Source of the DNA: Thermoplasmata archaeon
GTDB lineage: Archaea; Thermoplasmatota; Thermoplasmata; RBG-16-68-12
Assembly (NCBI GenBank): GCA_035636315.1
Contig: DASPZJ010000048.1
Span: 908 to 64,907, forward strand
DNA length: 64,000 bases
Direction: 5' to 3'
The translations under genes were made by a program, and so were the position numbers. Positions 572 through 27,367 of the stretch are shown piece after piece. Every line of letters starts with the position of its first letter. The first letter of the stretch is position 1. The notes beneath the pieces were generated by a model, which saw only the letters and a list, made by a program, of their open reading frames with translations, was not told the origin of the DNA and did not search any database.

Positions 572-1330
572 TTAGAAGGTGTCGAGCACTTTCCGCGCGA
601 ACGAAAGATAGCCGGTGTGGCCGAGCGGTGCAAAGGACGGACGGGTGCCGGAGTCGGACGCCTCGATTTCTCGCTCGATGATTTCCAGGGTACGGATTTC
701 TACGAACGGCCCCGCACGGAGCGCTACCACCGTCTGACTAACCTGCTCCATGTTCGGCGAGTACGACGCGAAATGACCGCACGGACGGAGAGCACTGGCG
801 GCGTTCCCGATCGTTTCCCATGGGTCCGGGATGTCGACGACGAATGCGTCTGCGCCAGTTTCCGGGATGCCGACTCGGGCGTCTCCCACCTTGAATTCGA
901 CTCGTTCCTCGAGTCCCGCTGCCGAGACGTTTCGCTGAGCCACATCCAGGAACTCTGGTCGCAAGTCGTATGAGACGACGCGACCTTTTGGACCGACCGC
1001 GTTCGCGAGTACGACAGTCAGGGCACCGGAACCGGCGCCCACCTCGACGATGAAATCACCGGGTTTCACATCGCTGTTCCACACCAGGGCGGGCAGGTCC
1101 TTGGGACCGATGATTTGGGCTTTCCGTCCGAGCAAACCTACAGTGTCGCGGATAGAAGGCGTGAGCACGAGGAACGATCGGCCTCCTACCGTCCACCGCT
1201 TGCCAATCGAGGCGACCAGAGTTTCGGCCCGAACTACGCCAAGTCGCGGGAGCGTCACCGTTTCTCGGTCGAGGACGACCAAGTGCTTTCTGCCCGAGGG
1301 TTCGAGTAGGATGAGTCGAGTCGGGCCCAT
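572..1330 (-). CDS. trmI: tRNA (adenine-N1)-methyltransferase, TrmI/Gcd14 family
   Basis: 252 aa; SAM-binding motif VVEVGAGSGALT plus TrmI-like C-terminal region. Confidence 0.75.
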   Translation of the reverse strand: MGPTRLILLEPSGRKHLVVLDRETVTLPRLGVVRAETLVASIGKRWTVGGRSFLVLTPSIRDTVGLLGRKAQIIGPKDLPALVWNSDVKPGDFIVEVGAGSGALTVVLANAVGPKGRVVSYDLRPEFLDVAQRNVSAAGLEERVEFKVGDARVGIPETGADAFVVDIPDPWETIGNAASALRPCGHFASYSPNMEQVSQTVVALRAGPFVEIRTLEIIEREIEASDSGTRPSFAPLGHTGYLSFARKVLDTF

Positions 1331-18236: not shown

Positions 18237-19400
18237 GTGCGGCTCACGACGGCGCAACGGCGCCTCCGGGACGAAGGCTCGCCCGCCCAACGGACGTCGA
18301 TGCGGCTCCTCCTGACGGTCGCTCGACTCTCGGACGCGGACCGGCTCGTGCCGATCACCTCGGCCCACGTCTCCGGGGCGTCGTACAAGATGATCGGCGA
18401 CCCGGGACTCGAGTTCCTCGAGGACTTCGCCCGAGACGCCCGCGTCAGGGTCCCGACGACGGTGAACCCGCTCGGCACGGATCTCGCGCAATGGAGAGAG
18501 CTCGGGGTGTCGGAGACGTTCGCGGCAAAACAACGACGCATCGCGTCCGCGTACGAGACGATGGGCGCGCGGCCGACCTACTCGTGCACGCCGTACGATG
18601 ATCTCCCTCGCCCCGCGTTTGGCGAGCACCTCGCGTGGGCCGAATCGAATGCGGTGTGTTTCGCAAATTCCGTGCTCGGCGCCCGCACGAACCGGGAAGG
18701 CGGTCCGTCCGCCCTCGCCGCGGCGATCGTCGGCGCCACGCCCGACTACGGGCTGCATCGGGACGAGGGACGCCAGCCCACGGTCATCGTCGACGTGCGC
18801 ACGAGGCCCCGAGGGATCGACTTCTCCCTCCTCGGACTCGTGGCCGGCGAGCGGGTGGGAGACGGCCTCCCGTACTTCCGCGGATTCCGCGGCACGGAAG
18901 CCGACCTGAAGTGGCTCGGCGCGGCGCTCGCTTCCTCCGGATCGTGCGCGATGTTCCATCTCGCGGGCATCACCCCCGAGGCGCGCCGCGCGCGTCTCCG
19001 GGGGCTGAAAACCATTTCGATCGACCGCGCCGACCTTCGGGCGACCGAGCGGCGCTACTCCGACGGCACGGACGCCGACCTGATTGCGTTCGGGTCGCCG
19101 CAGCTCTCGGCCGCCGAGTTGCGCGATGTCGCGACGCTCGTCGGTCGGACGCCGCCTCGCATCCCGGTCTGGGTCTTCACGAGCCGCGCGGTGCGGGAGG
19201 CGAATCCGGATTCCGTGGCCGCGATCGAGCGGCACGGAGGCCGGGTCCTCGCCGACACCTGCCTCGAGGTCACGATGCTGGAGCACCGATTCGGCACGGT
19301 CGCGACGCCCTCGGGGAAGGGCGCGTACTATCTGCCGAGCCTGTGCCACCAGAAGGTCATCCTGGCCGACGTCCGGTATCTCCTGGAGCGGTACGCATGA
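18237..19400 (+). CDS. aconitase X (AcnX) large/catalytic subunit; likely phosphomevalonate dehydratase large subunit of the archaeal mevalonate pathway
   Basis: 387 aa; PITSAHVSGASY..GDPGLEFL, cysteine ligand region SGSCAMFHLAG; GTG start abuts UPF0201 stop (TGAGTG). Confidence 0.65.
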   Translation: MRLTTAQRRLRDEGSPAQRTSMRLLLTVARLSDADRLVPITSAHVSGASYKMIGDPGLEFLEDFARDARVRVPTTVNPLGTDLAQWRELGVSETFAAKQRRIASAYETMGARPTYSCTPYDDLPRPAFGEHLAWAESNAVCFANSVLGARTNREGGPSALAAAIVGATPDYGLHRDEGRQPTVIVDVRTRPRGIDFSLLGLVAGERVGDGLPYFRGFRGTEADLKWLGAALASSGSCAMFHLAGITPEARRARLRGLKTISIDRADLRATERRYSDGTDADLIAFGSPQLSAAELRDVATLVGRTPPRIPVWVFTSRAVREANPDSVAAIERHGGRVLADTCLEVTMLEHRFGTVATPSGKGAYYLPSLCHQKVILADVRYLLERYA

Positions 19401-20251
19401 GGATCCGCGCGCGGCCGATCGCTCCCGGTCGGGCGACCGGGACCGCCCTCGTCCATCCGCAGCCATTCTCCTTCGTGGGCGGGGTGGATCCGAGGACCGG
19501 GGCCGTGCTCGACCGCGGCGCGCCCGCGCCGGGACGTTCGCTCGCGGGGCGCGTGTTCGCCTTCCCGCATGGAAAGGGGAGCACGGTCGGGTCGTACGTG
19601 CTCTACGGCCTGGGACGGCGCGGCGTGGGGCCGGCGGCGATCGTGAACTCGCGCGCCGAAGCGATCGTCGCGGTCGGCGCCGTCCTCGCGGGCGTCCCGA
19701 TGGTCGACCGAGTGGATGTCGGAGGAATCCGGTCGGAGGATCGGATCACGGTCGATGGGGATCGCGGCGTCGTCGAGCTCCCCGAGGTACGTGGGCGCGC
19801 CGTCGTGTCCGCGGTCCTCCGAAACCATGGACGGATCCTGATCGTCCGGCGGAGCGAAGCGGTCGGGAGCTTCCAGGGTCGCTGGTCCGCGGTATCCGGC
19901 TACATCGAGGGGCGAGAGGATCCGCGCGACCGCGCGGTCCGCGAGGTCCGGGAGGAGACGGGCCTCCGACGTCTCGTCCTTCGGGCGACCGGGCAGCCGG
20001 TGCTCGCACGGACCGACGCCACGGTGTACGTCGTCCATCCGTTCCTCTTCGACGTCCCGAGCCGCGCGGTCCGACTCGACTGGGAGAACGTCGATCACGC
20101 GTGGGTCCGGCCCGAGGACCTGGGCCGATACGACACGGTCCCCCGACTGGAGGACGTCATCGGGTCCGTCCTGCCGTCGACCGCGTCGACTCCCAGGCCG
20201 TCCCCGAGGCGTCCCCGGAAGACGATCAGGAAGACGGTTTCCCCGGGATGA
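19397..20251 (+). CDS. AcnX small subunit (DUF126-like) fused to C-terminal Nudix hydrolase domain
   Basis: ATG overlaps large-subunit stop (ATGA); N-terminal ~130 aa MRIRARPIAPGRATGTALVHPQPFSFVGGVDPRTG...; C-terminal perfect Nudix box GYIEGREDPRDRAVREVREETGL. Confidence 0.6.
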   Translation: MRIRARPIAPGRATGTALVHPQPFSFVGGVDPRTGAVLDRGAPAPGRSLAGRVFAFPHGKGSTVGSYVLYGLGRRGVGPAAIVNSRAEAIVAVGAVLAGVPMVDRVDVGGIRSEDRITVDGDRGVVELPEVRGRAVVSAVLRNHGRILIVRRSEAVGSFQGRWSAVSGYIEGREDPRDRAVREVREETGLRRLVLRATGQPVLARTDATVYVVHPFLFDVPSRAVRLDWENVDHAWVRPEDLGRYDTVPRLEDVIGSVLPSTASTPRPSPRRPRKTIRKTVSPG

Positions 20252-23200
20252 CTCGGTCCACTTCCCGCTCGAAGAGCGTCAGCTGATGCGCATCGAGGGC
20301 GGACGGGTTGACGGACAGCAGGAGGACCGCCCCGTTGATTGCCACCTGGTCTCGCAGGGACTGGATGAGCCGGAGGATCGTGATGAAATTGTTATTCGTC
20401 ACGAGGTATTCGAGGCCGTCGATCAAGACGACTCCGGTCGTCCCGCCGAGGAATTGCTCGACCGAGAGGGAGAGTTTCTCCAGGTCCTTCGGTCGAACCG
20501 AGTTCTCCTTCCCGACGTTGCTGAGCCAGAGGATCCGGAGGTCCACACCTCCGAACCGCTCACGGACCTTCTTCGGATAGACCCGCGTGATGCAGAGGCC
20601 CGTCTTGCCGGCCTGCAAGGCGGTCCGGAACAAGTCGTACACCTCGCTCGGAGTCTTCTCTTCGATCAGGTACGTCGAGGAGTCCTTCAGAGGCTGCGCG
20701 GCTCCTTTCGCATCGCCGGCCTCGGGGTGACCTGCGCCCGGCGTCTGCGAGGCGCCACACGCGGGGCACACCGTCCACTCGGGTGGAAGCAGGGCGCCGC
20801 AGGCGACGCACGCGACGCGGGGTGCGACTGACGGCCCGATACCCGAGAGCACGAAGCCGCATGCCTCGCATGCGTCCGAGCCGGGCGGGACCGGAGCTTG
20901 GCAGTGGGGACAGGGCGTCGCCTTCGTCGTCGCGGGCTCGCCGCACCGGGGGCATCGTCGCACGCCGGCCGGAATCGTCGCGCCGCAGGTCGCACACTCG
21001 ACGTCGGCGGGTCCTTCCTTCGACAGCGCCCCCATGATCCGCTCGGCATCGGACGGTTCGAGGCCCTCGATGGCCGCGAGTTCCGCCTTCGTCGCCGCCT
21101 TGAGAGCGCCGACGCTCTTGTACCCGGCATCGAAGAGGGCCATCGCCTTCGCCGTCGTGATGCCGGGAACCTTCGTGAATTCGCGGAGCGACTCCGACAT
21201 GTGGAGCGGCGTCACCCCGATCGTGACCGAGCGGCCATCGACATCCTTCCATTCGACCACGTACTCCGATTCGACGTCCTTGTCCGTGAACGCGAGTCTG
21301 CGGGACCGCGTCTCCCGCGCCATGAACGCGGCCTGAGGCGCGAGCGTCGCGGCGAACTCCTTGTTCGTCTTGACGACCGTCGCAATGAAATCGTCCACTT
21401 CGAGGTCGATCTCCTTCCGCATCTGTTGCACGCGCCGGATGATCTCTCGGGCGTAGGCCTCCGCCTGGAGCTCCGGCGTCACGCGGAGGTCGAGATACAG
21501 CTCGCCGTGCGGTGTCGTCGCGACGAGGACGTCCGGAGGCACCTGCTTCTCGAATCGCACCATGGACGCGTCGATCGTGACGATCTGGCCTTCCACGCCG
21601 ACCTCGTACGGCCCCCGCTCGAGCGCCTTCCGGATCTCCTCGGCGGGCCGCGCCTCGAGGACCTTCACGATCTTCGGCTGGAGGACCTTGTACGCCTTTC
21701 CGATCGCGGCGGGATCTGGCTTGGCGACGATCGCCATCCCGGGGAACTCGTCCGTGGGCTTGAGGACGGCGAGCTCCTTCGCGTTCGTCAGTTCGAGGAA
21801 GACGCCCTTCAACGAATCGAGGGCGGCGGCCGCACCCGGCGTGGGTGCTCGGACCGCCACGAGCTTCAGCGGCCAGCGGAGCTTGCGGCCTCCCTTCTGC
21901 CGCTCCTTCGACACGACCTCGACGAGCTCTTGCACGATCGCCATCGACGCTTCGAGGTCCTCCTTGCGGCGTCCTTCGATGGTCGAGGGCCAATCGAGCA
22001 TGTGGACGCTGAGCTTGCGGCCGTCGAGACGCTGGTAGATCGCCTCGGCGATGTACGGCGTGATCGGCGCGAGCAGCGCGGCGACCGTCCCGAGCGATTC
22101 GTGCAGGACGCGGTAGGCGGCGAGCTTGTCACGGTCCGTCGCATCGGTCCACGTCCGTTCGCGGACGAGCTTGACGTACCAGCGGGACAAGTCGTCCAGG
22201 ATGAACGACTCGACGGCGCGGTACGCTCGGTGGAGGCTGTACGTCGCCATCTCGGCGTCGACCGTCGCCTTCACGCCCTCGAGGCGCGAGAGGAGCCAGC
22301 GGTCCTCGTGTCGAAGATGGCCCTCGACGTTCGGCGCGCCCGGTGCAAACGGATCGAACCGATCCAGTACCATGTACGTCGTCGCGAATCGGAGGACGTT
22401 CCAAAGGATATTCAGGGTGCGAAGGGCCGTCCGGACCCCGTCCTCTTGGAACGTGATGTCGTCCCAGGGAGCGTTCACGAGGACCATGTAGAGGCGGAGC
22501 GCGTCGACGCCGAACTTGTCCACGACCGTCGACGGCTCGACGTAATTCCCGAGGGACTTGTGCATCTGCCTACCATCTGGCCCGTTCACCCATCCGTGCA
22601 TAAGGACGGATTCGTACGGGGCACGGTCGAAGGCGACGACGCCGGCGGCGAGTTGCGAGTTGAACCAGCCGCGCGTCTGGTCCGGACCCTCGACGATCCA
22701 ATCCGCGGGCCACCACCGCTTGAACTCGTCCTCCCCCGCCGGATAGCCGAGGCTCGCCCAGGTCGAGACGCCGCTGTCGAACCAGACATCGACGATGTCG
22801 CGCACCCGCGCCATCGTCCCGCCGCACTCGCCGCACGGCAGGGTGACGGCATCGATGCCCGGCCGGTGGAGGTCCATGCCGTCCTGGTAGCCGCGGCCCT
22901 GCCGGAGTTCCACGGACGACCCAACGACGATCCAGTGGCGGCACTTTACGCACCGCCAGATCGGGAGAGGGATGCCCCAGTACCGCTGTCGGGAAACGCA
23001 CCAGTCGCGCAGGTCCTCCGTCCAGTGGAGCTGCCGGGCGGAGCCGGCCCAGTCCGGGTACCACCGGACGCGCCGCACCTCGTCGACCATCTTCGGCTTG
23101 ATGTCGGAGACCTTCAGGAACCATTGGACCGTGGCGCGGAACAGGATCGGCGTCTTGCACCGCCAGCAGTGGCCGTAGGCGTGGACGAGGGTCCCTTCGG

Positions 23201-24365
23201 CGAACAGCGCGCCCGCGGACCGCAGATCGTCGATGATGATCGGGTTCGCCTCTTTCACGTGTTTCCCGGCGTACTCGCCGGCGTCCGGCGTGAAGTGCCC
23301 CCGCTCGTCGACCGGGGAGAACGCCGGCAGGCCGAGCCGCTGCCCGAGCTCGAAGTCCTCCGGACCGTGACCGGGCGCGGAGTGGACCAGGCCCGTGTGC
23401 TCGGCCTCGACGACCTCGGACGCCACGACCTTGTGCACCCAATCGCCTTTGATGCCGGCCTGGTACGGGATCCGCGGGGCGAGCGGATGCAGGTACGCGC
23501 GGCCGACGAGCCGGTCCCCCGTCGTTCGTTCGGCGATGTCGTACGAGGCAATGCCACCGAGCGCCATCACCGTCGGGACCGCGGATTCCATCATCCAGAC
23601 GTACTCCGCCTTGTCGCCCGAACCAAACCGCACCTTGGCGTACGAGAACTGCGGATGGATCGCGATCGCGAGATTCGCGGGTAGCGTCCACGGCGTCGTG
23701 GTCCAAATGAGCAGGGATTCCTTCAGATGGCCCGCGAGCGGGAACTTCACGTAGATCGATGGATCGGTCTCGTCCGCGTACTCGACCTCCGCGTCCGCCA
23801 GGGCTGTCTCGTCCCGCGTGCACCATTGGATCGATCGCAGCGCTTCGTATAGGAGCCCCCTCTCGTACGCGCGCTTCAGGGTCCACCATGCGCCTTCGAT
23901 GTACTCGTTGCGGATCGTCATGTAGGGACGGTCCCAGTCCAGCCAGACACCGAGCGATTGGAACTGCTCCGTCATCTTCTTCAGGAGGTCCAGGGAGAAG
24001 TTCCGGCAGGTGTCGATGAACTTCGCGATTCCGAGGTCCTCGATCTCCTTCTTGTTCGTGATCCCGAGGGTCTTCTCGACCTGGACCTCGATCGGGAGGC
24101 CATGCATGTCGTAACCCGGCTGGTCGCGGACGCGGAAGCCCCGCATCCGGCGGTAGCGGACGACGGCGTCCTTGATCGTCTTGTTCAGCACCTGTCCAAG
24201 GTGGATCGTGCCGGTCGTGTACGGCGGGCCGTCGCCGAAGTAGTATTCCTCTCCGCGCTCGCGCGCGGCGACCGTCTTCGGGTAGACTTTCGCGCGCGTC
24301 CAGAATTCCTGGACCTGACGCTCTAGCTCCGCTGGAAGGTACGACTTCTCCGCCTGCTTGATCAT
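20226..24365 (-). CDS. ileS: isoleucyl-tRNA synthetase, continuing in frame without a stop into a ~324-aa HhH / multi-zinc-ribbon / DUF835-like module
   Basis: Start taken at MIKQAEKSY (ORF track 24398); class I motifs PPYTTGTIHLGQ and KSLGN, editing and anticodon domains; IleRS-like end ...SVTIGVTPLHM at ~21201, then SLREFTKVPGITTAKAM... (HhH), 4 CxxC pairs, then DUF835-like GLCITR...VLIDGLEYL... Confidence 0.8.
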   Translation of the reverse strand: MIKQAEKSYLPAELERQVQEFWTRAKVYPKTVAARERGEEYYFGDGPPYTTGTIHLGQVLNKTIKDAVVRYRRMRGFRVRDQPGYDMHGLPIEVQVEKTLGITNKKEIEDLGIAKFIDTCRNFSLDLLKKMTEQFQSLGVWLDWDRPYMTIRNEYIEGAWWTLKRAYERGLLYEALRSIQWCTRDETALADAEVEYADETDPSIYVKFPLAGHLKESLLIWTTTPWTLPANLAIAIHPQFSYAKVRFGSGDKAEYVWMMESAVPTVMALGGIASYDIAERTTGDRLVGRAYLHPLAPRIPYQAGIKGDWVHKVVASEVVEAEHTGLVHSAPGHGPEDFELGQRLGLPAFSPVDERGHFTPDAGEYAGKHVKEANPIIIDDLRSAGALFAEGTLVHAYGHCWRCKTPILFRATVQWFLKVSDIKPKMVDEVRRVRWYPDWAGSARQLHWTEDLRDWCVSRQRYWGIPLPIWRCVKCRHWIVVGSSVELRQGRGYQDGMDLHRPGIDAVTLPCGECGGTMARVRDIVDVWFDSGVSTWASLGYPAGEDEFKRWWPADWIVEGPDQTRGWFNSQLAAGVVAFDRAPYESVLMHGWVNGPDGRQMHKSLGNYVEPSTVVDKFGVDALRLYMVLVNAPWDDITFQEDGVRTALRTLNILWNVLRFATTYMVLDRFDPFAPGAPNVEGHLRHEDRWLLSRLEGVKATVDAEMATYSLHRAYRAVESFILDDLSRWYVKLVRERTWTDATDRDKLAAYRVLHESLGTVAALLAPITPYIAEAIYQRLDGRKLSVHMLDWPSTIEGRRKEDLEASMAIVQELVEVVSKERQKGGRKLRWPLKLVAVRAPTPGAAAALDSLKGVFLELTNAKELAVLKPTDEFPGMAIVAKPDPAAIGKAYKVLQPKIVKVLEARPAEEIRKALERGPYEVGVEGQIVTIDASMVRFEKQVPPDVLVATTPHGELYLDLRVTPELQAEAYAREIIRRVQQMRKEIDLEVDDFIATVVKTNKEFAATLAPQAAFMARETRSRRLAFTDKDVESEYVVEWKDVDGRSVTIGVTPLHMSESLREFTKVPGITTAKAMALFDAGYKSVGALKAATKAELAAIEGLEPSDAERIMGALSKEGPADVECATCGATIPAGVRRCPRCGEPATTKATPCPHCQAPVPPGSDACEACGFVLSGIGPSVAPRVACVACGALLPPEWTVCPACGASQTPGAGHPEAGDAKGAAQPLKDSSTYLIEEKTPSEVYDLFRTALQAGKTGLCITRVYPKKVRERFGGVDLRILWLSNVGKENSVRPKDLEKLSLSVEQFLGGTTGVVLIDGLEYLVTNNNFITILRLIQSLRDQVAINGAVLLLSVNPSALDAHQLTLFEREVDRVIPGKPSS

Positions 24366-24710
24366 CGCAGCCCCTCTCCCGGGGAATCGGGCCACCAAGA
24401 GGCTTCTTCATCGCCTCGGAGCGGCGGTCCGTTTATGCCAATAGCCATATTAAAAAGTGCGGGCCTACGCGGCTGCGTTCCACGGCCCCGCCCCTAACTC
24501 CGGTCGTGGAACAATCTGCTACGGCCGTGGAACAGGGAACGCCGCATTGGGTCGGTAGTCGTTGAATGGCGCGACGCCAGGGCATTGCCTCCAAGACGTG
24601 GACCGGACGAAATCGATAAAACGCCGGTGCCGATTCCGCCCGGCATGGCCAAGCCCGGCGACATCACATCTGTTCTGAACGTATAAGTATCCTCGCAGCC
24701 TTCAGTCAAA

Positions 24711-27245
24711 ATGGGTGGCTTGGAGAGTAGAAGAGACGTTCTGCGAATGTGCCTGATCGCAGGTTCGCTCTTGGCAACTGGCTTCGTTCTTCAAACATTT
24801 AGCACCGCGAATGCACAGGCTGCCCTCATACCTCATCAACCCATATCCATCTATGGCGACGACCAGTTCACGCCTGCCCACGGGGTTGTGACCGGGAATG
24901 GTACGGTGACGGACCCATTCGTTATCCAGGGTTGGGACATCGACGCCTCTTCGGCTACGGGGATCTATGTTCAAGACACGCAGGCTGTTTTCGTCATCCG
25001 GAATTGTCACATCCACGGCAACGCCGCCATCTCCTTCTGGAACGTGGTGCACGGCAATGTTGAAAACAATTCCATCGACGTCTCGGGACGTGCGATTGAG
25101 TTCGGCGAATCGGACGGCTTGCTTGTCAGCAACAATGATTTCTCGGGACCCGGCAGCGGGGTGGCGACATTCAGTTCCCGCCACGTCACGCTCTTTGCGA
25201 ACAGATTCGCCGCTGGAGGTGTATTTGTCAGCGGTGCTTTCGTCGACCAATATGACTCACTCCAGGTTCCTGCAAACAATACGATCAACGGCCGACCGAT
25301 CATGCTCGTAAAAGACTCGGCCGGCGCCGAGATTGATGGAGGGGACATCGGACAACTCCTATTGGTAAATGTAAGCGGCGCTCGAATTGCCAACCTAACA
25401 GTTGGCGGTGCATACGCGAACATGCTTCTCGCCTTCGTGAACGACACGACGCTTCTGCGGAACGTTGTCGCGAACGGTACGTATGGCATCTATGTGGACA
25501 AGTCATCGGACGTATGGATCACTGACAACAACGTCTCCTCGAACGTGGATACGGGGATCGGCATCTATTATTCAAGTACTGCCACGATAGTCGGAAACAA
25601 CATCGCTTCGAACCAATACGGAATTCGAATGGAGTTCGGGAGTTCCGCATCGATTTTCCACAACAACCTCGTCCGAAATGGGGTCCAAGCTGTCGTCGAC
25701 GTTGATTCCGGAGGGAAGTGGAACGACGTCTACCCGTCGGGGGGCAACTTTTGGTCAGATTATTCCGGTCTAGATTCCTGTAGTGGCAACGACCAAAACG
25801 TCTGTCCGAACCCGGATGGAATCGGCGATACGCCGCGCGCAATCAGCGACCTCCGAGCGGATAGAGACCGTTTTCCGTTGATGTCACCGTTCAGCGGCAC
25901 ATCTCCGCGACAACCGAGTCCGTATCCGCTCTACGGCAGCGTTTCAGAGGGATGGGGTAGCACACCGACATCGCTGACGAGTCCCGGTCCGGTCTTTGCA
26001 ACTCGGGAAGGCGAAACTATAACACTTCACCTTCTCAGCGTCGATGGCCTCACACACAGTTGGTTCCTCGACATCAACAACAACTCAATCCCAGACTCCG
26101 GAGAGCCCGTCAGCCCAGACTTTCAATCAGGAACCGTCCCCCTTAACTTCACGTTCAATGCTCCACCAGGTATGGTGGGCGCGTTCCCGTATCGGTGTCG
26201 CTACCACCCAGCCGTGATGAACGGACAGTTCGTGATTCGACCGAATCGGAGCGAACCGAGCTTCTCCCTCTACGGTAACTTCAACGGGTGGGGCTTGTCA
26301 ATGAACTCTACGTCGAATCCGGGACCGACCCTAGAGCTCTATTATGGAGAGGTCGCAACCCTCCAGCTGACGACGCTCGATTACACCCACTTCTTCACGT
26401 GGTTCATCGACTACAACAACGACACCGTCGAACAGGCATGGGAGCCGTCTTCTGGGGCATTTTGGTACCACTCCCCGATCCAAACGCGTTTCACCGCAAA
26501 CAGGCTAGGCACGTTCACCTATCGTAGCAGCGAATATCCCACAATAATGACTGGCCTAGTCCAAGTCACCGGTACTCAAATCAAACAGTCGGCGCCTCCG
26601 TCGACCGAAGCGAGCCTTGCCGGCAAACGTGGATCGAATGATTGGTTCGTCTCGGCCGTAACCGTCTCCCTGACCGCTTCCGATTTGCTCGGCTCCGTTA
26701 CACGGACTCAGTTCCGCATCGACCTTGGAGTTTGGTCGAACTACACCGCTCCGTTCACCATTGCCACGGATGGATTCCACGTGATGAGCTTCTATTCGAC
26801 CAATGATGCCGGCGACGTCGAAGCGGTGAAGTCCGCAATCGTCCGCATCGACACGGTTCCACCAGGAATCCGGATCTTCGACTCGGCCGAGTCGACAGTC
26901 TCCTCGCCGCTGACTGTGGACTGGCAAGTGCAAGATGCCAGTTCCGGGTTGGGATACTGTGTAATTCAAATGGACCAGGACGACCCCACCAATGTGGGGA
27001 CGACATCCTCCGCGACATTCAATCTCGCCGATGGAGTTCACACGTTCTCGGTCGTAGCGTTTGATTCAGCGGGAAACTCAGCATCAGCAACAGCTCGATT
27101 CGTCGTGGGTGGAAGCGCTGCCCAGAGCCCATTAGGGTTTCCCTCCAACTATGTGAGTGGCGGGGCCATCGCGGGGGTTGCGGGAGGCTTAGCTTTACTT
27201 TCGGCGTGGTGGATTAGAAGGCATCGTCGCCCACCTCGAAGATGA
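24711..27245 (+). CDS. secreted/surface protein: Tat-like signal, NosD-like right-handed beta-helix repeats, two cupredoxin-like domains (one with full type-1 Cu ligand set), Ig-like region, C-terminal TM anchor
   Basis: SRRDVLRMCLIAGSLLATG signal; repeated N..I / GIY..S..V..NN motifs (PbH1); GETITLHLLSVDGLTHSW...YRCRYHPAVMNGQF (H, C-x2-H-x3-M); second copy lacks Cys; C-terminal GGAIAGVAGGLALLSAWWIRRHRR. Confidence 0.65.
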   Translation: MGGLESRRDVLRMCLIAGSLLATGFVLQTFSTANAQAALIPHQPISIYGDDQFTPAHGVVTGNGTVTDPFVIQGWDIDASSATGIYVQDTQAVFVIRNCHIHGNAAISFWNVVHGNVENNSIDVSGRAIEFGESDGLLVSNNDFSGPGSGVATFSSRHVTLFANRFAAGGVFVSGAFVDQYDSLQVPANNTINGRPIMLVKDSAGAEIDGGDIGQLLLVNVSGARIANLTVGGAYANMLLAFVNDTTLLRNVVANGTYGIYVDKSSDVWITDNNVSSNVDTGIGIYYSSTATIVGNNIASNQYGIRMEFGSSASIFHNNLVRNGVQAVVDVDSGGKWNDVYPSGGNFWSDYSGLDSCSGNDQNVCPNPDGIGDTPRAISDLRADRDRFPLMSPFSGTSPRQPSPYPLYGSVSEGWGSTPTSLTSPGPVFATREGETITLHLLSVDGLTHSWFLDINNNSIPDSGEPVSPDFQSGTVPLNFTFNAPPGMVGAFPYRCRYHPAVMNGQFVIRPNRSEPSFSLYGNFNGWGLSMNSTSNPGPTLELYYGEVATLQLTTLDYTHFFTWFIDYNNDTVEQAWEPSSGAFWYHSPIQTRFTANRLGTFTYRSSEYPTIMTGLVQVTGTQIKQSAPPSTEASLAGKRGSNDWFVSAVTVSLTASDLLGSVTRTQFRIDLGVWSNYTAPFTIATDGFHVMSFYSTNDAGDVEAVKSAIVRIDTVPPGIRIFDSAESTVSSPLTVDWQVQDASSGLGYCVIQMDQDDPTNVGTTSSATFNLADGVHTFSVVAFDSAGNSASATARFVVGGSAAQSPLGFPSNYVSGGAIAGVAGGLALLSAWWIRRHRRPPRR

Positions 27246-27290
27246 CAGAAGGAATCATGACCCTCATGATCCACTGCCTTCTCCTTGAGG

Positions 27291-27367
27291 GGCCGGGAGC
27301 GAGATTTGAACTCGCGTCAAGGGATCCACAGTCCCCTAGCATAAGACCAGGCTAGCCCATCCCGGCC
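27291..27367 (-). tRNA. tRNA-His (anticodon GTG) with genomically encoded G-1; no encoded CCA
   Basis: Reverse complement: G-1, acceptor GCCGGGA/TCCCGGC, anticodon arm GGGGA-CTGTGGA-TCCCT (GTG at 34-36), T-arm GCGAG-TTCAAAT-CTCGC, discriminator C; D-arm carries AGCCTGG loop but stem pairing is imperfect. Confidence 0.8.

Follow-up and report, generated by a model that had tools for sequence, protein, structure and literature searches.

An apparently old fusion of isoleucyl-tRNA synthetase with a terminal DUF835 domain in Thermoplasmatota

The isoleucyl-tRNA synthetase (IleRS) gene of a soil archaeon of the phylum Thermoplasmatota continues in frame into a long tail made of helix-hairpin-helix (HhH), zinc-ribbon and DUF835 domains. 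Comparison with related genomes indicates that this fusion is genuine, old and vertically inherited, and that it extends across much of the phylum. We propose, with a probability of about one half, that DUF835 in this inherited fusion is a module on a flexible tether that serves in docking or assembly. The gene lies in a 64-kb stretch of DNA that was analysed as a whole (the window) and that contains only one ileS; its features are collected in Table 1.

Table 1. Features of the fused ileS gene in the window, with residues numbered from the first TTG codon
Feature	Position	Strand	Residues	Evidence
ileS-HhH-ZnR-DUF835, whole fused gene	20226..24398	minus		ORF call, Pfam, TIGRFAM match, NCBI protein match
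Class I catalytic (HUP) domain with inserted CP1/editing domain	22470..24314	minus	29-643	Pfam tRNA-synt_1, E=3e-125
Anticodon-binding helical domain	21861..22304	minus	699-846	Pfam Anticodon_1, E=5e-32
Type-2 C-terminal tRNA-recognition module ARD2/ARD3	21201..21785	minus	872-1066	Pfam DUF5915, E=2e-22
Helix-hairpin-helix domain	21018..21200	minus	1067-1127	Pfam HHH_5, E=3e-11
Three Cys4 zinc ribbons	20757..20996	minus		Pfam DZR (E=6e-17), Zn_Ribbon_1, Zn_ribbon_3, Zn_ribbon_15
Individual ribbon	20943-20996	minus	1135-1152	
Individual ribbon	20859-20912	minus	1163-1180	
Individual ribbon	20757-20810	minus	1197-1214	
Linker, poorly conserved	20679..20756	minus	1215-1240	pLDDT <50 at tail residues 155-166
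DUF835 (PF05763, iKaiC), putative inactivated KaiC/RecA-like domain	20244..20678	minus	1241-1385	

Gene model and synthetase body

Counted from its first TTG at 24398, the reading frame encodes 1390 aa and ends at a TGA codon at 20226-20228. The real start is probably the ATG at 24365, giving a protein of 1379 aa, because alignments of orthologues begin at about residue 5-12; an identical 1379-aa protein is deposited at NCBI (HYS73186.1), and its 90% cluster comprises 24 members from mutually independent assemblies. At 65-70% GC, the DNA of the window frequently yields long stop-free frames by chance, and its ORF list holds many spurious ones, so coding status was judged from domain E-values, conservation and dN/dS and not from ORF length. 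For every part of the tail dN/dS lies between 0.13 and 0.41 (<0.45), and the tail is under purifying selection.

The protein scores 915.5 bits against the TIGR00392 ileS equivalog (cut-off 621.4) and, judging by its domain content, encodes a complete type-2 IleRS. Homology to both solved and unfused IleRS stops at about residue 1066 (nt 21201): alignments to PDB structures reach only the end of the ARD2/ARD3 module, the unfused relatives P0125, P0129 and P0133 terminate at that same place and the DUF5915 match spans residues 872-1060. As the initial annotation had read it, no stop codon follows, and 324 further codons precede the TGA. Alignments place class I signature 1 at HLGQ (residues 66-69, 24192-24203), where solved IleRS show HVGH, and signature 2 at QMHKS (residues 611-615, 22554-22568), the canonical HxGH and KMSKS being absent. 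Such variation is common (HxG[TQN] is frequent among the nearest IleRS representatives, fused and unfused alike), so HLGQ/QMHKS is read as a lineage variant and not as evidence of inactivity. A tie between HLGQ and the fusion was considered and rejected, as many of the nearest relatives that lack the fusion, a Halobacteria MAG among them, have HxGT/Q/N too.

Synteny is conserved at the locus, which adjoins AcnX and AcnX-swivel/NUDIX. A search near ileS for tRNA-Ile or other RNA elements returned only a tRNA-His gene (27289-27366).

Architecture of the tail

The HhH domain begins three residues past the last ARD3 strand. It matches HHH_5 with 44.0 bits (threshold 27), forms five short helices in the AF2 model and finds PDB profile matches in the N-terminal extension of haloarchaeal eL32, NusA AR1/AR2, the N-terminal domain of RadA/Rad51 and Hel308. 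The AF2 model of residues 860-1130 has a pLDDT of 88 and a pTM of 0.69; across the ARD3/HhH junction, where pLDDT is 86-94, it contains no low-confidence linker. The methionine at 21200 (residue 1067), proposed earlier as the start of a separate downstream gene, does not behave as one: the position is M, L, I, A, T, F or V in orthologues.

Zinc ribbons are present, as had been claimed, but not as four CxxC pairs: the sequence reads as six CxxC motifs forming three Cys4 units, with a DZR match of 62 bits (threshold 27.3) and three pairs of beta-hairpins at these positions in the AF2 model. Among orthologues the CxxC count varies between 6, 4, 2 and 0, and 10 of the 52 intact ones lack any CxxC. 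Mean identity across the linker that follows is 20%.

The DUF835 match covers profile positions 3-135 of 136, with 111.9 bits (cut-off 33.1) and E=2.6e-32. AF2 models the domain with a pLDDT of 87.7; it is predicted to adopt a RecA/KaiC-like alpha/beta fold. Both the HhH and the DUF835/KaiC-like assignments of the initial annotation are thus upheld. A PDB profile search with DUF835 alone gave insignificant matches only (FlaH, E=0.41; a CcpA-like regulator, E=0.13). Its Walker B-like strand, VVLIDGLEYL, is conserved, aligns to the Walker-B strand of FlaH and ends in Asp. The beta1-alpha1 loop is just five residues long (KTPSE) and does not match Walker A, GxxxxGK[ST]. No P-loop ([AG]xxxxGK[ST]) occurs within the DUF835 of any of 53 tails, the sole pattern match, at locus L064, lying outside the domain, and DUF835 in the tail is predicted to be catalytically dead. 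Two polar/basic motifs, RPKDLEKL and EYLxTNNNF, are strictly conserved. Identity over DUF835 is 63%, against 66-68% for the catalytic core, and 59% against 58-59% in distant orthologues; the domain is conserved as strongly as the core.

Distribution in relatives

The junction is read through in frame in 79 of 80 related species genomes. In 52 related genomes one unbroken ORF of 1359-1672 aa covers the gene, with 46-95% identity, and the interruptions seen in relatives are all confined to the IleRS body and spare the junction. At locus L054, from a Methanomassiliicoccus sp. MAG, the ORF measures 1422 aa from stop to stop, and complete genomes with the fusion include CP070748.1, OW818644.1 and OY968769.1. 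More distant IleRS representatives (33-50% identity, 1228-2329 aa), from Ca. Sysuiplasma acidicola and Ca. Thermoplasmatota MAGs, carry tails of about 190-1290 aa, at the end of which DUF835, or a diverged domain resembling it, is always present. These fused relatives, the intact ORFs and the 24 independent assemblies support a genuine synthetase fusion, one of the explanations that the initial annotation had offered. Its alternative, a separate gene joined by loss of the ileS stop, finds no support as a recent event, read-through being kept down to 33-50% identity. At database level homologous IleRS routinely carry the tail, which the initial annotation had named as grounds for regarding it as known, and the fusion therefore occurs beyond the window genome. 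Public records label the fused proteins simply 'isoleucine--tRNA ligase'; in many cases gene calling has detached the tail and listed it separately as a 'DUF835 domain-containing protein'. The tail is not described in the literature consulted on IleRS fusions in Methanomassiliicoccales or on KaiC-like proteins together with tRNA synthetases.

The separate HhH-ZnR-DUF835 gene that the initial annotation had suggested looking for 3' of ileS in relatives was not found at the loci checked. No unfused relative checked showed a DUF835 gene downstream of ileS; the contigs of P0125 stop about 150 bp after the stop codon, and P0128 carries unrelated genes there. Stand-alone HhH/DUF835 paralogues were also considered as partners or ancestors of the tail and rejected, as those checked are 3' ends of fused ileS at the syntenic locus: P0095 (locus L084) proved by tblastn to be an intact fused gene, and P0109 and P0043 are fragments caused by gene calling or contig ends.

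What lies between IleRS and DUF835 differs by lineage and comprises zero to three HhH domains, zero to three zinc ribbons, TPR repeats (in the longer tails) and disordered acidic segments 20 to >1000 residues long. Ca. Sysuiplasma has IleRS and DUF835 only, the HhH and zinc ribbons being absent. Spacer length ranges over 37-1134 residues among the representatives, and spacer net charge over -2 to -115 (-28 to -115 in long-tail forms). DUF835 appears to be the sole constant element of the tail and is always terminal.

Discussion

We favour a docking or assembly role for the tail. To judge by the varying spacer, DUF835 would need no fixed geometry relative to IleRS, and the charge of the tail ranges from neutral to acidic; together these points make such a domain the most likely reading. 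Docking could take two forms. First, DUF835 might self-associate into RecA/KaiC-type rings. Second, it might bind a KaiC-like ATPase or another cellular partner. Either would put IleRS into a higher-order complex, much as the C-terminal repeats of human IleRS would in the multi-synthetase complex, in connection with whose membership they have been discussed (PMC4394549). In the lineage of the window, no linker separates the first HhH from the anticodon-recognition domain, and this HhH may provide an additional, non-specific contact with the tRNA backbone. Several points count against docking. The abutment of HhH and anticodon-recognition domain fits tRNA binding in cis, at least for the HhH, and RPKDLEKL and EYLxTNNNF could equally make a small-ligand pocket. 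Additionally, neither a second DUF835 copy nor a KaiC-like gene was found in the window, and none is conserved beside ileS in relatives.

A more ambitious form of the docking proposal, in which the dead tail makes IleRS part of archaeal KaiC-like ATPase signalling hubs or in which IleRS forms ring-shaped oligomers, is a long shot. If true, Thermoplasmatota would have a direct coupling between signal transduction and the charging of tRNA-Ile, and hence the supply of isoleucine or branched-chain amino acids. In eukaryotes synthetase complexes are linked to stress signalling, and this coupling would be the archaeal counterpart.

Among the other explanations, we regard a cis-acting tRNA-binding appendage as unlikely. 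Arc1p/EMAPII/Trbp111 domains and the RecA-like Elp456 ring provide models of tRNA binding, and by analogy the HhH, zinc ribbons and RecA-like DUF835 would bind tRNA-Ile, raising affinity or retaining the tRNA for channelling. However, the tail has no basic part, with net charges of about -2 for the HhH and about 0 for DUF835 and spacers down to -115. The HhH and zinc ribbons are moreover dispensable, as Ca. Sysuiplasma and the orthologues without CxxC illustrate, and a distance between DUF835 and the enzyme that varies by more than 1000 residues is ill-suited to a positioned tRNA contact.

A regulatory or sensor module is likewise an improbable reading. Here DUF835 would bind a small ligand or take input from the archaeal KaiC-like/two-component network, and would switch the activity, localisation or moonlighting of IleRS, or inform that network of the state of charging. 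The invariant polar residues of DUF835 sit at strand C-termini, the ligand site of RecA-like folds, and this placement, like the TPR repeats of longer tails, suits a sensor. It is implausible, however, that allostery would work across disordered linkers hundreds of residues long, no conserved signalling gene was seen near ileS and no ligand is predicted.

DNA-directed moonlighting, with an HhH and RecA-like core that mimic RadA/Rad51 so that the tail binds DNA for repair or chromatin tethering, is very improbable: the RadA/Rad51 models, whose cut-offs are 259-478 (259-361 for RadA), give about 20 bits with the HhH alone aligning, Walker A is missing, some lineages lack the HhH and the tail is not basic. 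Finally, an assembly error (a possibility raised by the initial annotation), a sequencing error that deleted the stop of ileS or a recent mutational loss of that stop has practically no chance of being correct, since its only support is that high-GC DNA produces long chance ORFs, whereas the independent assemblies of the 24 cluster members and the intact ORFs of 52 orthologues refute an assembly chimera and the 79 in-frame junctions, conservation down to 33% identity, a dN/dS well below 1 and relatives' interruptions that spare the junction argue against accident of any kind.

Large non-catalytic appendages of synthetases are usually regarded as eukaryotic, with ties to signalling and the assembly of complexes. 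In these archaea an essential type of synthetase has retained one over a wide span of the phylum, and its conservation is on a par with that of the active site. The inactivated-KaiC group, to which DUF835 belongs, has been proposed to wire archaeal signalling. The fused tail offers a testable handle on what DUF835/iKaiC binds and on a possible use of such domains by archaea to organise or regulate the charging of tRNA. Annotation is affected too, as the fused proteins are hidden under plain IleRS names or split DUF835 genes.

Comparison with known systems

Type-2 IleRS (archaeal, eukaryotic and some bacterial; ARD2-INS-ARD3) share with the window protein the catalytic, editing, anticodon-binding and DUF5915 domains, whereas the window protein adds about 324 C-terminal residues and has HLGQ/QMHKS in place of HxGH/KMSKS. 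A curated prokaryotic IleRS fusion has a precedent in NCBIfam NF040702 'ileS_w_GNAT' (IleRS with an N-acetyltransferase domain), but there the partner domain is another one, and the window protein, whose 430.8 bits fall below the cut-off of 1999, is not a member. Single-domain archaeal KaiC-like ATPases (PH0284, ArlH/FlaH, SSO2452) differ from DUF835 of the tail, which lacks Walker A and so presumably does not hydrolyse ATP. Elongator Elp456 is a separate hetero-hexamer and not an appended domain, and the comparison with it rests on no sequence relationship.

The iKaiC group is said to have been defined by Makarova and colleagues in mBio in 2017. Galperin et al. 2018 (PMC5847659) enter DUF835 under the name 'iKaiC' among the output domains that archaeal response regulators use; those domains share with the tail PF05763, a P-loop-less RecA/KaiC-like fold and a terminal, non-enzymatic use, but the tail DUF835 is attached to an essential enzyme of translation and not to REC or PAS input domains. 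Finally, although the archaeal tail folds are unrelated to those of appended eukaryotic synthetases (the human IleRS repeats and the GST-like/EMAPII domains of the multi-synthetase complex), and although we infer the archaeal role, both have a non-catalytic C-terminal extension for which assembly or tethering is the proposed function.

Results

The isoleucyl-tRNA synthetase (IleRS) gene of the window runs without interruption past the end of IleRS homology into a tail of helix-hairpin-helix (HhH), zinc-ribbon and DUF835 domains (see table). Alignments to solved IleRS structures (8c9d, 8wnd and 9w01) and to unfused relatives end at about residue 1066 (nucleotide 21201), where the window sequence has no stop codon, as the initial annotation had described; the four CxxC pairs it counted proved to be six CxxC motifs, forming three Cys4 zinc ribbons. 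By NCBIfam the protein is an ileS equivalog (915.5 bits against a cut-off of 621.4), and it is a member of the IleRS family that also carries Pfam DUF835, HHH_5 and DZR. Assignment as RadA or as the curated 'ileS_w_GNAT' variant was rejected by the NCBIfam scan. Orthologues begin to align at about residue 5-12, and the version starting at ATG 24365 (1379 aa) is identical to NCBI HYS73186.1, titled 'MAG TPA: isoleucine--tRNA ligase [Thermoplasmata archaeon]'.

Features of the fused gene and its surroundings (nt, nucleotides; aa, residues of the 1390-aa ORF; L, loci from relatives' genomes, in locus coordinates)
Feature	Position	Strand	Remark
AcnX	nt 18237-19400	+	
AcnX-swivel (small-subunit) domain fused to NUDIX hydrolase domain	nt 19388-20251	+	
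Fused ileS	nt 24398 to TGA 20226-20228	-	one ORF, 1390 codons from first TTG
tRNA-synt_1	aa 29-643	-	Pfam
HLGQ (for HxGH)	nt 24192-24203	-	class I motif
QMHKS (for KMSKS)	nt 22554-22568	-	class I motif
Anticodon_1	aa 699-846	-	Pfam
DUF5915	aa 872-1060	-	Pfam
HHH_5	aa 1072-1125	-	Pfam
Double zinc ribbon and zinc-ribbon models	aa 1133-1216	-	Pfam
Cys4 zinc ribbons	aa 1135-1152, 1163-1180, 1197-1214	-	
DUF835	aa 1248-1379	-	Pfam, 111.9 bits (tail alone), cut-off 33.1
Low-GC segment	nt ~24500-27250		GC 0.53-0.57, from ~0.68
NosD/right-handed beta-helix protein	nt 24711-27245	+	844 aa, C-terminal hydrophobic stretch; in low-GC segment
tRNA-His	nt 27289-27366	-	after low-GC segment
ORF directly upstream of fused ileS, ARD2-ARD3-like end	L042 3-2702, L043 1-2697, L055 1-2670, L056 3-2669, L060 1-1350		
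Truncated syntenic ileS	L001 6001-7836		GCA_041320395.1, 944-kb contig
Unfused IleRS (P0128)	L088/L089 5001-8372		Thermoplasmata MAG GCA_034667685.1

The DNA here is 65-70% GC, in which chance yields long open frames, so coding status rests on domain matches, conservation and dN/dS. On this evidence the read-through is real. Clustered at 90% identity, the window protein belongs to a group of 24 proteins, mostly 1379 aa long, which come from independent NCBI, ENA and JGI assemblies. With each GTDB species represented by one genome, a scan turned up 193 stretches encoding a relative of the junction and tail; among the best 80 of these, which were fetched, 79 cross the junction in one tblastn segment, in one frame and without a stop. 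Fifty-two of the 80 carry a single stop-to-stop ORF (1359-1672 aa, 46-95% identity) covering query residues 2-12 through 1381-1390; a contig end cuts the gene in 17, and in 10, several of them long-read MAGs, it is interrupted within the IleRS body, in none of the 10 at the junction itself. Comparison of the window with five relatives gave dN/dS values of 0.11-0.24 in the IleRS body, 0.21-0.33 in HhH, 0.26-0.41 in the zinc ribbons and linker together, and 0.13-0.32 in DUF835. The fusion is real, as one alternative of the initial annotation had it, and it is under selection. An artefact, whether through assembly error or recent loss of a stop, is excluded for practical purposes by the independent assemblies, the in-frame junctions and the low dN/dS along the tail, and the internal start proposed at Met 21200 falls on residue 1067, which is M, L, I, A, T, F or V across orthologues.

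Conservation is uneven along the protein. Averaged over the 52 intact orthologues, identity to the window reaches 68% and 66% in the two catalytic halves, 61% in the anticodon domain, 59% in the editing domain and 63% in DUF835; it is 49% in DUF5915, 48% in HhH, 27% in the zinc ribbons and 20% in the linker. When only the 30 most distant orthologues are averaged, DUF835, at 59%, is on a par with the catalytic core (58-59%).

With the IleRS body alone as query, 1.84 billion cluster representatives were searched exhaustively by HMMER; the nearest IleRS proved to be a mixture of unfused proteins (1048-1123 aa) and fused ones (1228, 1323, 1369, 1404, 1436, 1480, 1495, 1644, 1671, 1733, 1773, 1782 and 2329 aa), and in each of the latter the IleRS part takes up about 1050 residues, N-terminal or nearly so. 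Tail architectures, read directly from the C-termini and by Pfam scans, range from DUF835 almost directly after IleRS (Ca. Sysuiplasma acidicola), through zinc ribbons and DUF835 (the representative P0122) and the HhH, three zinc ribbons and DUF835 of the window and its relatives, to HhH, zinc ribbon, HhH, zinc ribbon and DUF835 (Methanomassiliicoccaceae-type). In several Ca. Thermoplasmatota MAGs, hundreds of acidic low-complexity residues separate a first HhH and zinc ribbon from a second such pair, which is followed by TPR, linker and DUF835. The last domain is always DUF835 or, in P0147 and P0191 (33-35% identity, among the most distant representatives), a divergent DUF835-like domain; the Pfam scan of P0147 did not detect DUF835. 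Because DUF835 is always last while the intervening domains vary, the constant pairing is IleRS with DUF835, and all between is optional. Some Thermoplasmata IleRS lack the tail (P0125, 1065 aa). P0128, an unfused close relative, ends instead in about 60 basic, Lys/Ala-rich residues that resemble histone H1. Within the phylum the IleRS C-terminus has gained extensions of more than one kind.

Gene calls in public collections often record, as a separate 'DUF835 domain-containing protein', no more than the final 200-600 aa of the fused gene (loci L084, L090 and L091), which makes it look, falsely, as if HhH-DUF835 proteins stood alone; in L084 the full fused ORF is intact despite the separate call.

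The tail was modelled with AlphaFold2 from a 64-sequence alignment (mean pLDDT 87.7); the predicted elements are a five-helix HhH, three zinc-ribbon hairpin pairs and an alpha/beta domain that follows a disordered linker. The HhH most resembles the haloarchaeal eL32 N-terminal HhH extension, NusA AR1/AR2, the RadA/Rad51 N-terminal domain and Hel308 domain 5. In a second model, of ARD2-ARD3 (the DUF5915 module) and HhH (residues 860-1130; pLDDT 88.3, pTM 0.69), the predicted ARD3/HhH junction shows no dip in confidence, with three residues between the last ARD3 strand and the first HhH helix. DUF835 is a KaiC-like domain without a P-loop: its beta1-alpha1 loop, at the P-loop position, is five residues long (KTPSE), and a regular-expression search of 53 tails found no Walker A motif in DUF835, the sole match (L064) lying outside the domain. 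This agrees with Galperin et al. (PMC5847659), and an active KaiC-like ATPase is rejected. A Walker-B-like strand, VVLIDGLEYL, is conserved; its alignment with the FlaH counterpart is weak.

The class I motifs are also unusual. HxG[T/Q/N/A] occurs in 52/52 intact fused orthologues, and of the 150 nearest IleRS representatives, whether or not they are fused, about 50 have T, Q or N in fourth position; the aligned motif of solved IleRS is HVGH. His-to-Gln at this position is reported only from laboratory-selected mupirocin-resistant S. aureus, the natural variant being G/AxHH (Brkic 2023, PMC10485003), and the IleRS papers compared make no mention of a natural HxGT/Q class.

Downstream, the convergent AcnX-swivel/NUDIX gene overlaps ileS by 26 nt (20226-20251), including the ileS stop, and the AcnX pair is conserved there in distant relatives. 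Upstream, the low-GC segment may have been acquired horizontally beside the tRNA gene. In five relatives' loci the ORF directly upstream is at least 890 aa long, is open at the start of the locus and has an N-terminal part rich in coiled coil; its last 230 or so residues are 26-32% identical to IleRS ARD2-ARD3 (E 1e-18 to 7e-23). This second protein carries a duplicate of the IleRS anticodon-recognition module. The syntenic L001 locus encodes 611 aa only (Anticodon_1, DUF5915, HhH and DUF835, matching query residues 775-1386), with an opposite-strand EamA gene where the catalytic and editing parts would be expected; possible explanations are a truncated paralogue, a split gene and a misassembly.

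Discussion

The initial annotation held that the tail would count as known if homologous IleRS routinely carried it, and fused proteins are indeed already in public databases, named only 'isoleucine--tRNA ligase', with fragments named 'DUF835 domain-containing protein'. No description of an IleRS-DUF835 fusion was found in the searchable literature, where a single paper uses the term DUF835, and a 2026 preprint on C-terminal remodelling of 96,219 IleRS uses none of helix-hairpin, KaiC, fusion, extension or Thermoplasmat-. The fusion, built of known domains only and shared beyond the window genome, is an appended-domain synthetase so far undescribed in that literature. Such a tail on a prokaryotic housekeeping synthetase is surprising, and it offers a usable entry point to the function of iKaiC, the inactivated KaiC-like domain.

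The role of the tail we infer as follows. The DUF835 family is a non-enzymatic output of response regulators, which points to protein-protein interaction. Among fused representatives DUF835 lies 37 to >1100 residues from the enzyme, across spacers of net charge -2 to -115 (-28 to -115 in long-tail forms), and neither HhH (about -2) nor DUF835 (about 0) is basic. Variable spacing, acidic spacers and non-basic domains fit a docking or assembly domain on a tether, able to reach its target from any distance; we give a probability of roughly 0.5 to this reading, combined with a first HhH that possibly touches tRNA. Docking might be to a KaiC-like ATPase or some other partner, or the domain might self-associate into a RecA/KaiC-type ring; no conserved neighbour of ileS, and no other gene of the window, encodes a KaiC-like or DUF835 protein. 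In lineages that have it, the first HhH, fixed beside the anticodon-recognition domain, may give tRNA backbone contact.

That the whole tail is a cis tRNA-binding appendage is unlikely, since a positioned, electrostatic device fits poorly with acidic spacers of such varied length and non-basic domains. We likewise doubt a ligand- or signal-responsive regulatory module, because allosteric control of catalysis sits badly with the same spacers. DNA-directed moonlighting is very improbable.

For a tethered docking domain, the nearest functional analogy would be the appended C-terminal repeats of human IleRS, which have been discussed in relation to membership of the multi-synthetase complex; archaeal synthetase complexes are known, built by other means (PMC4394549).
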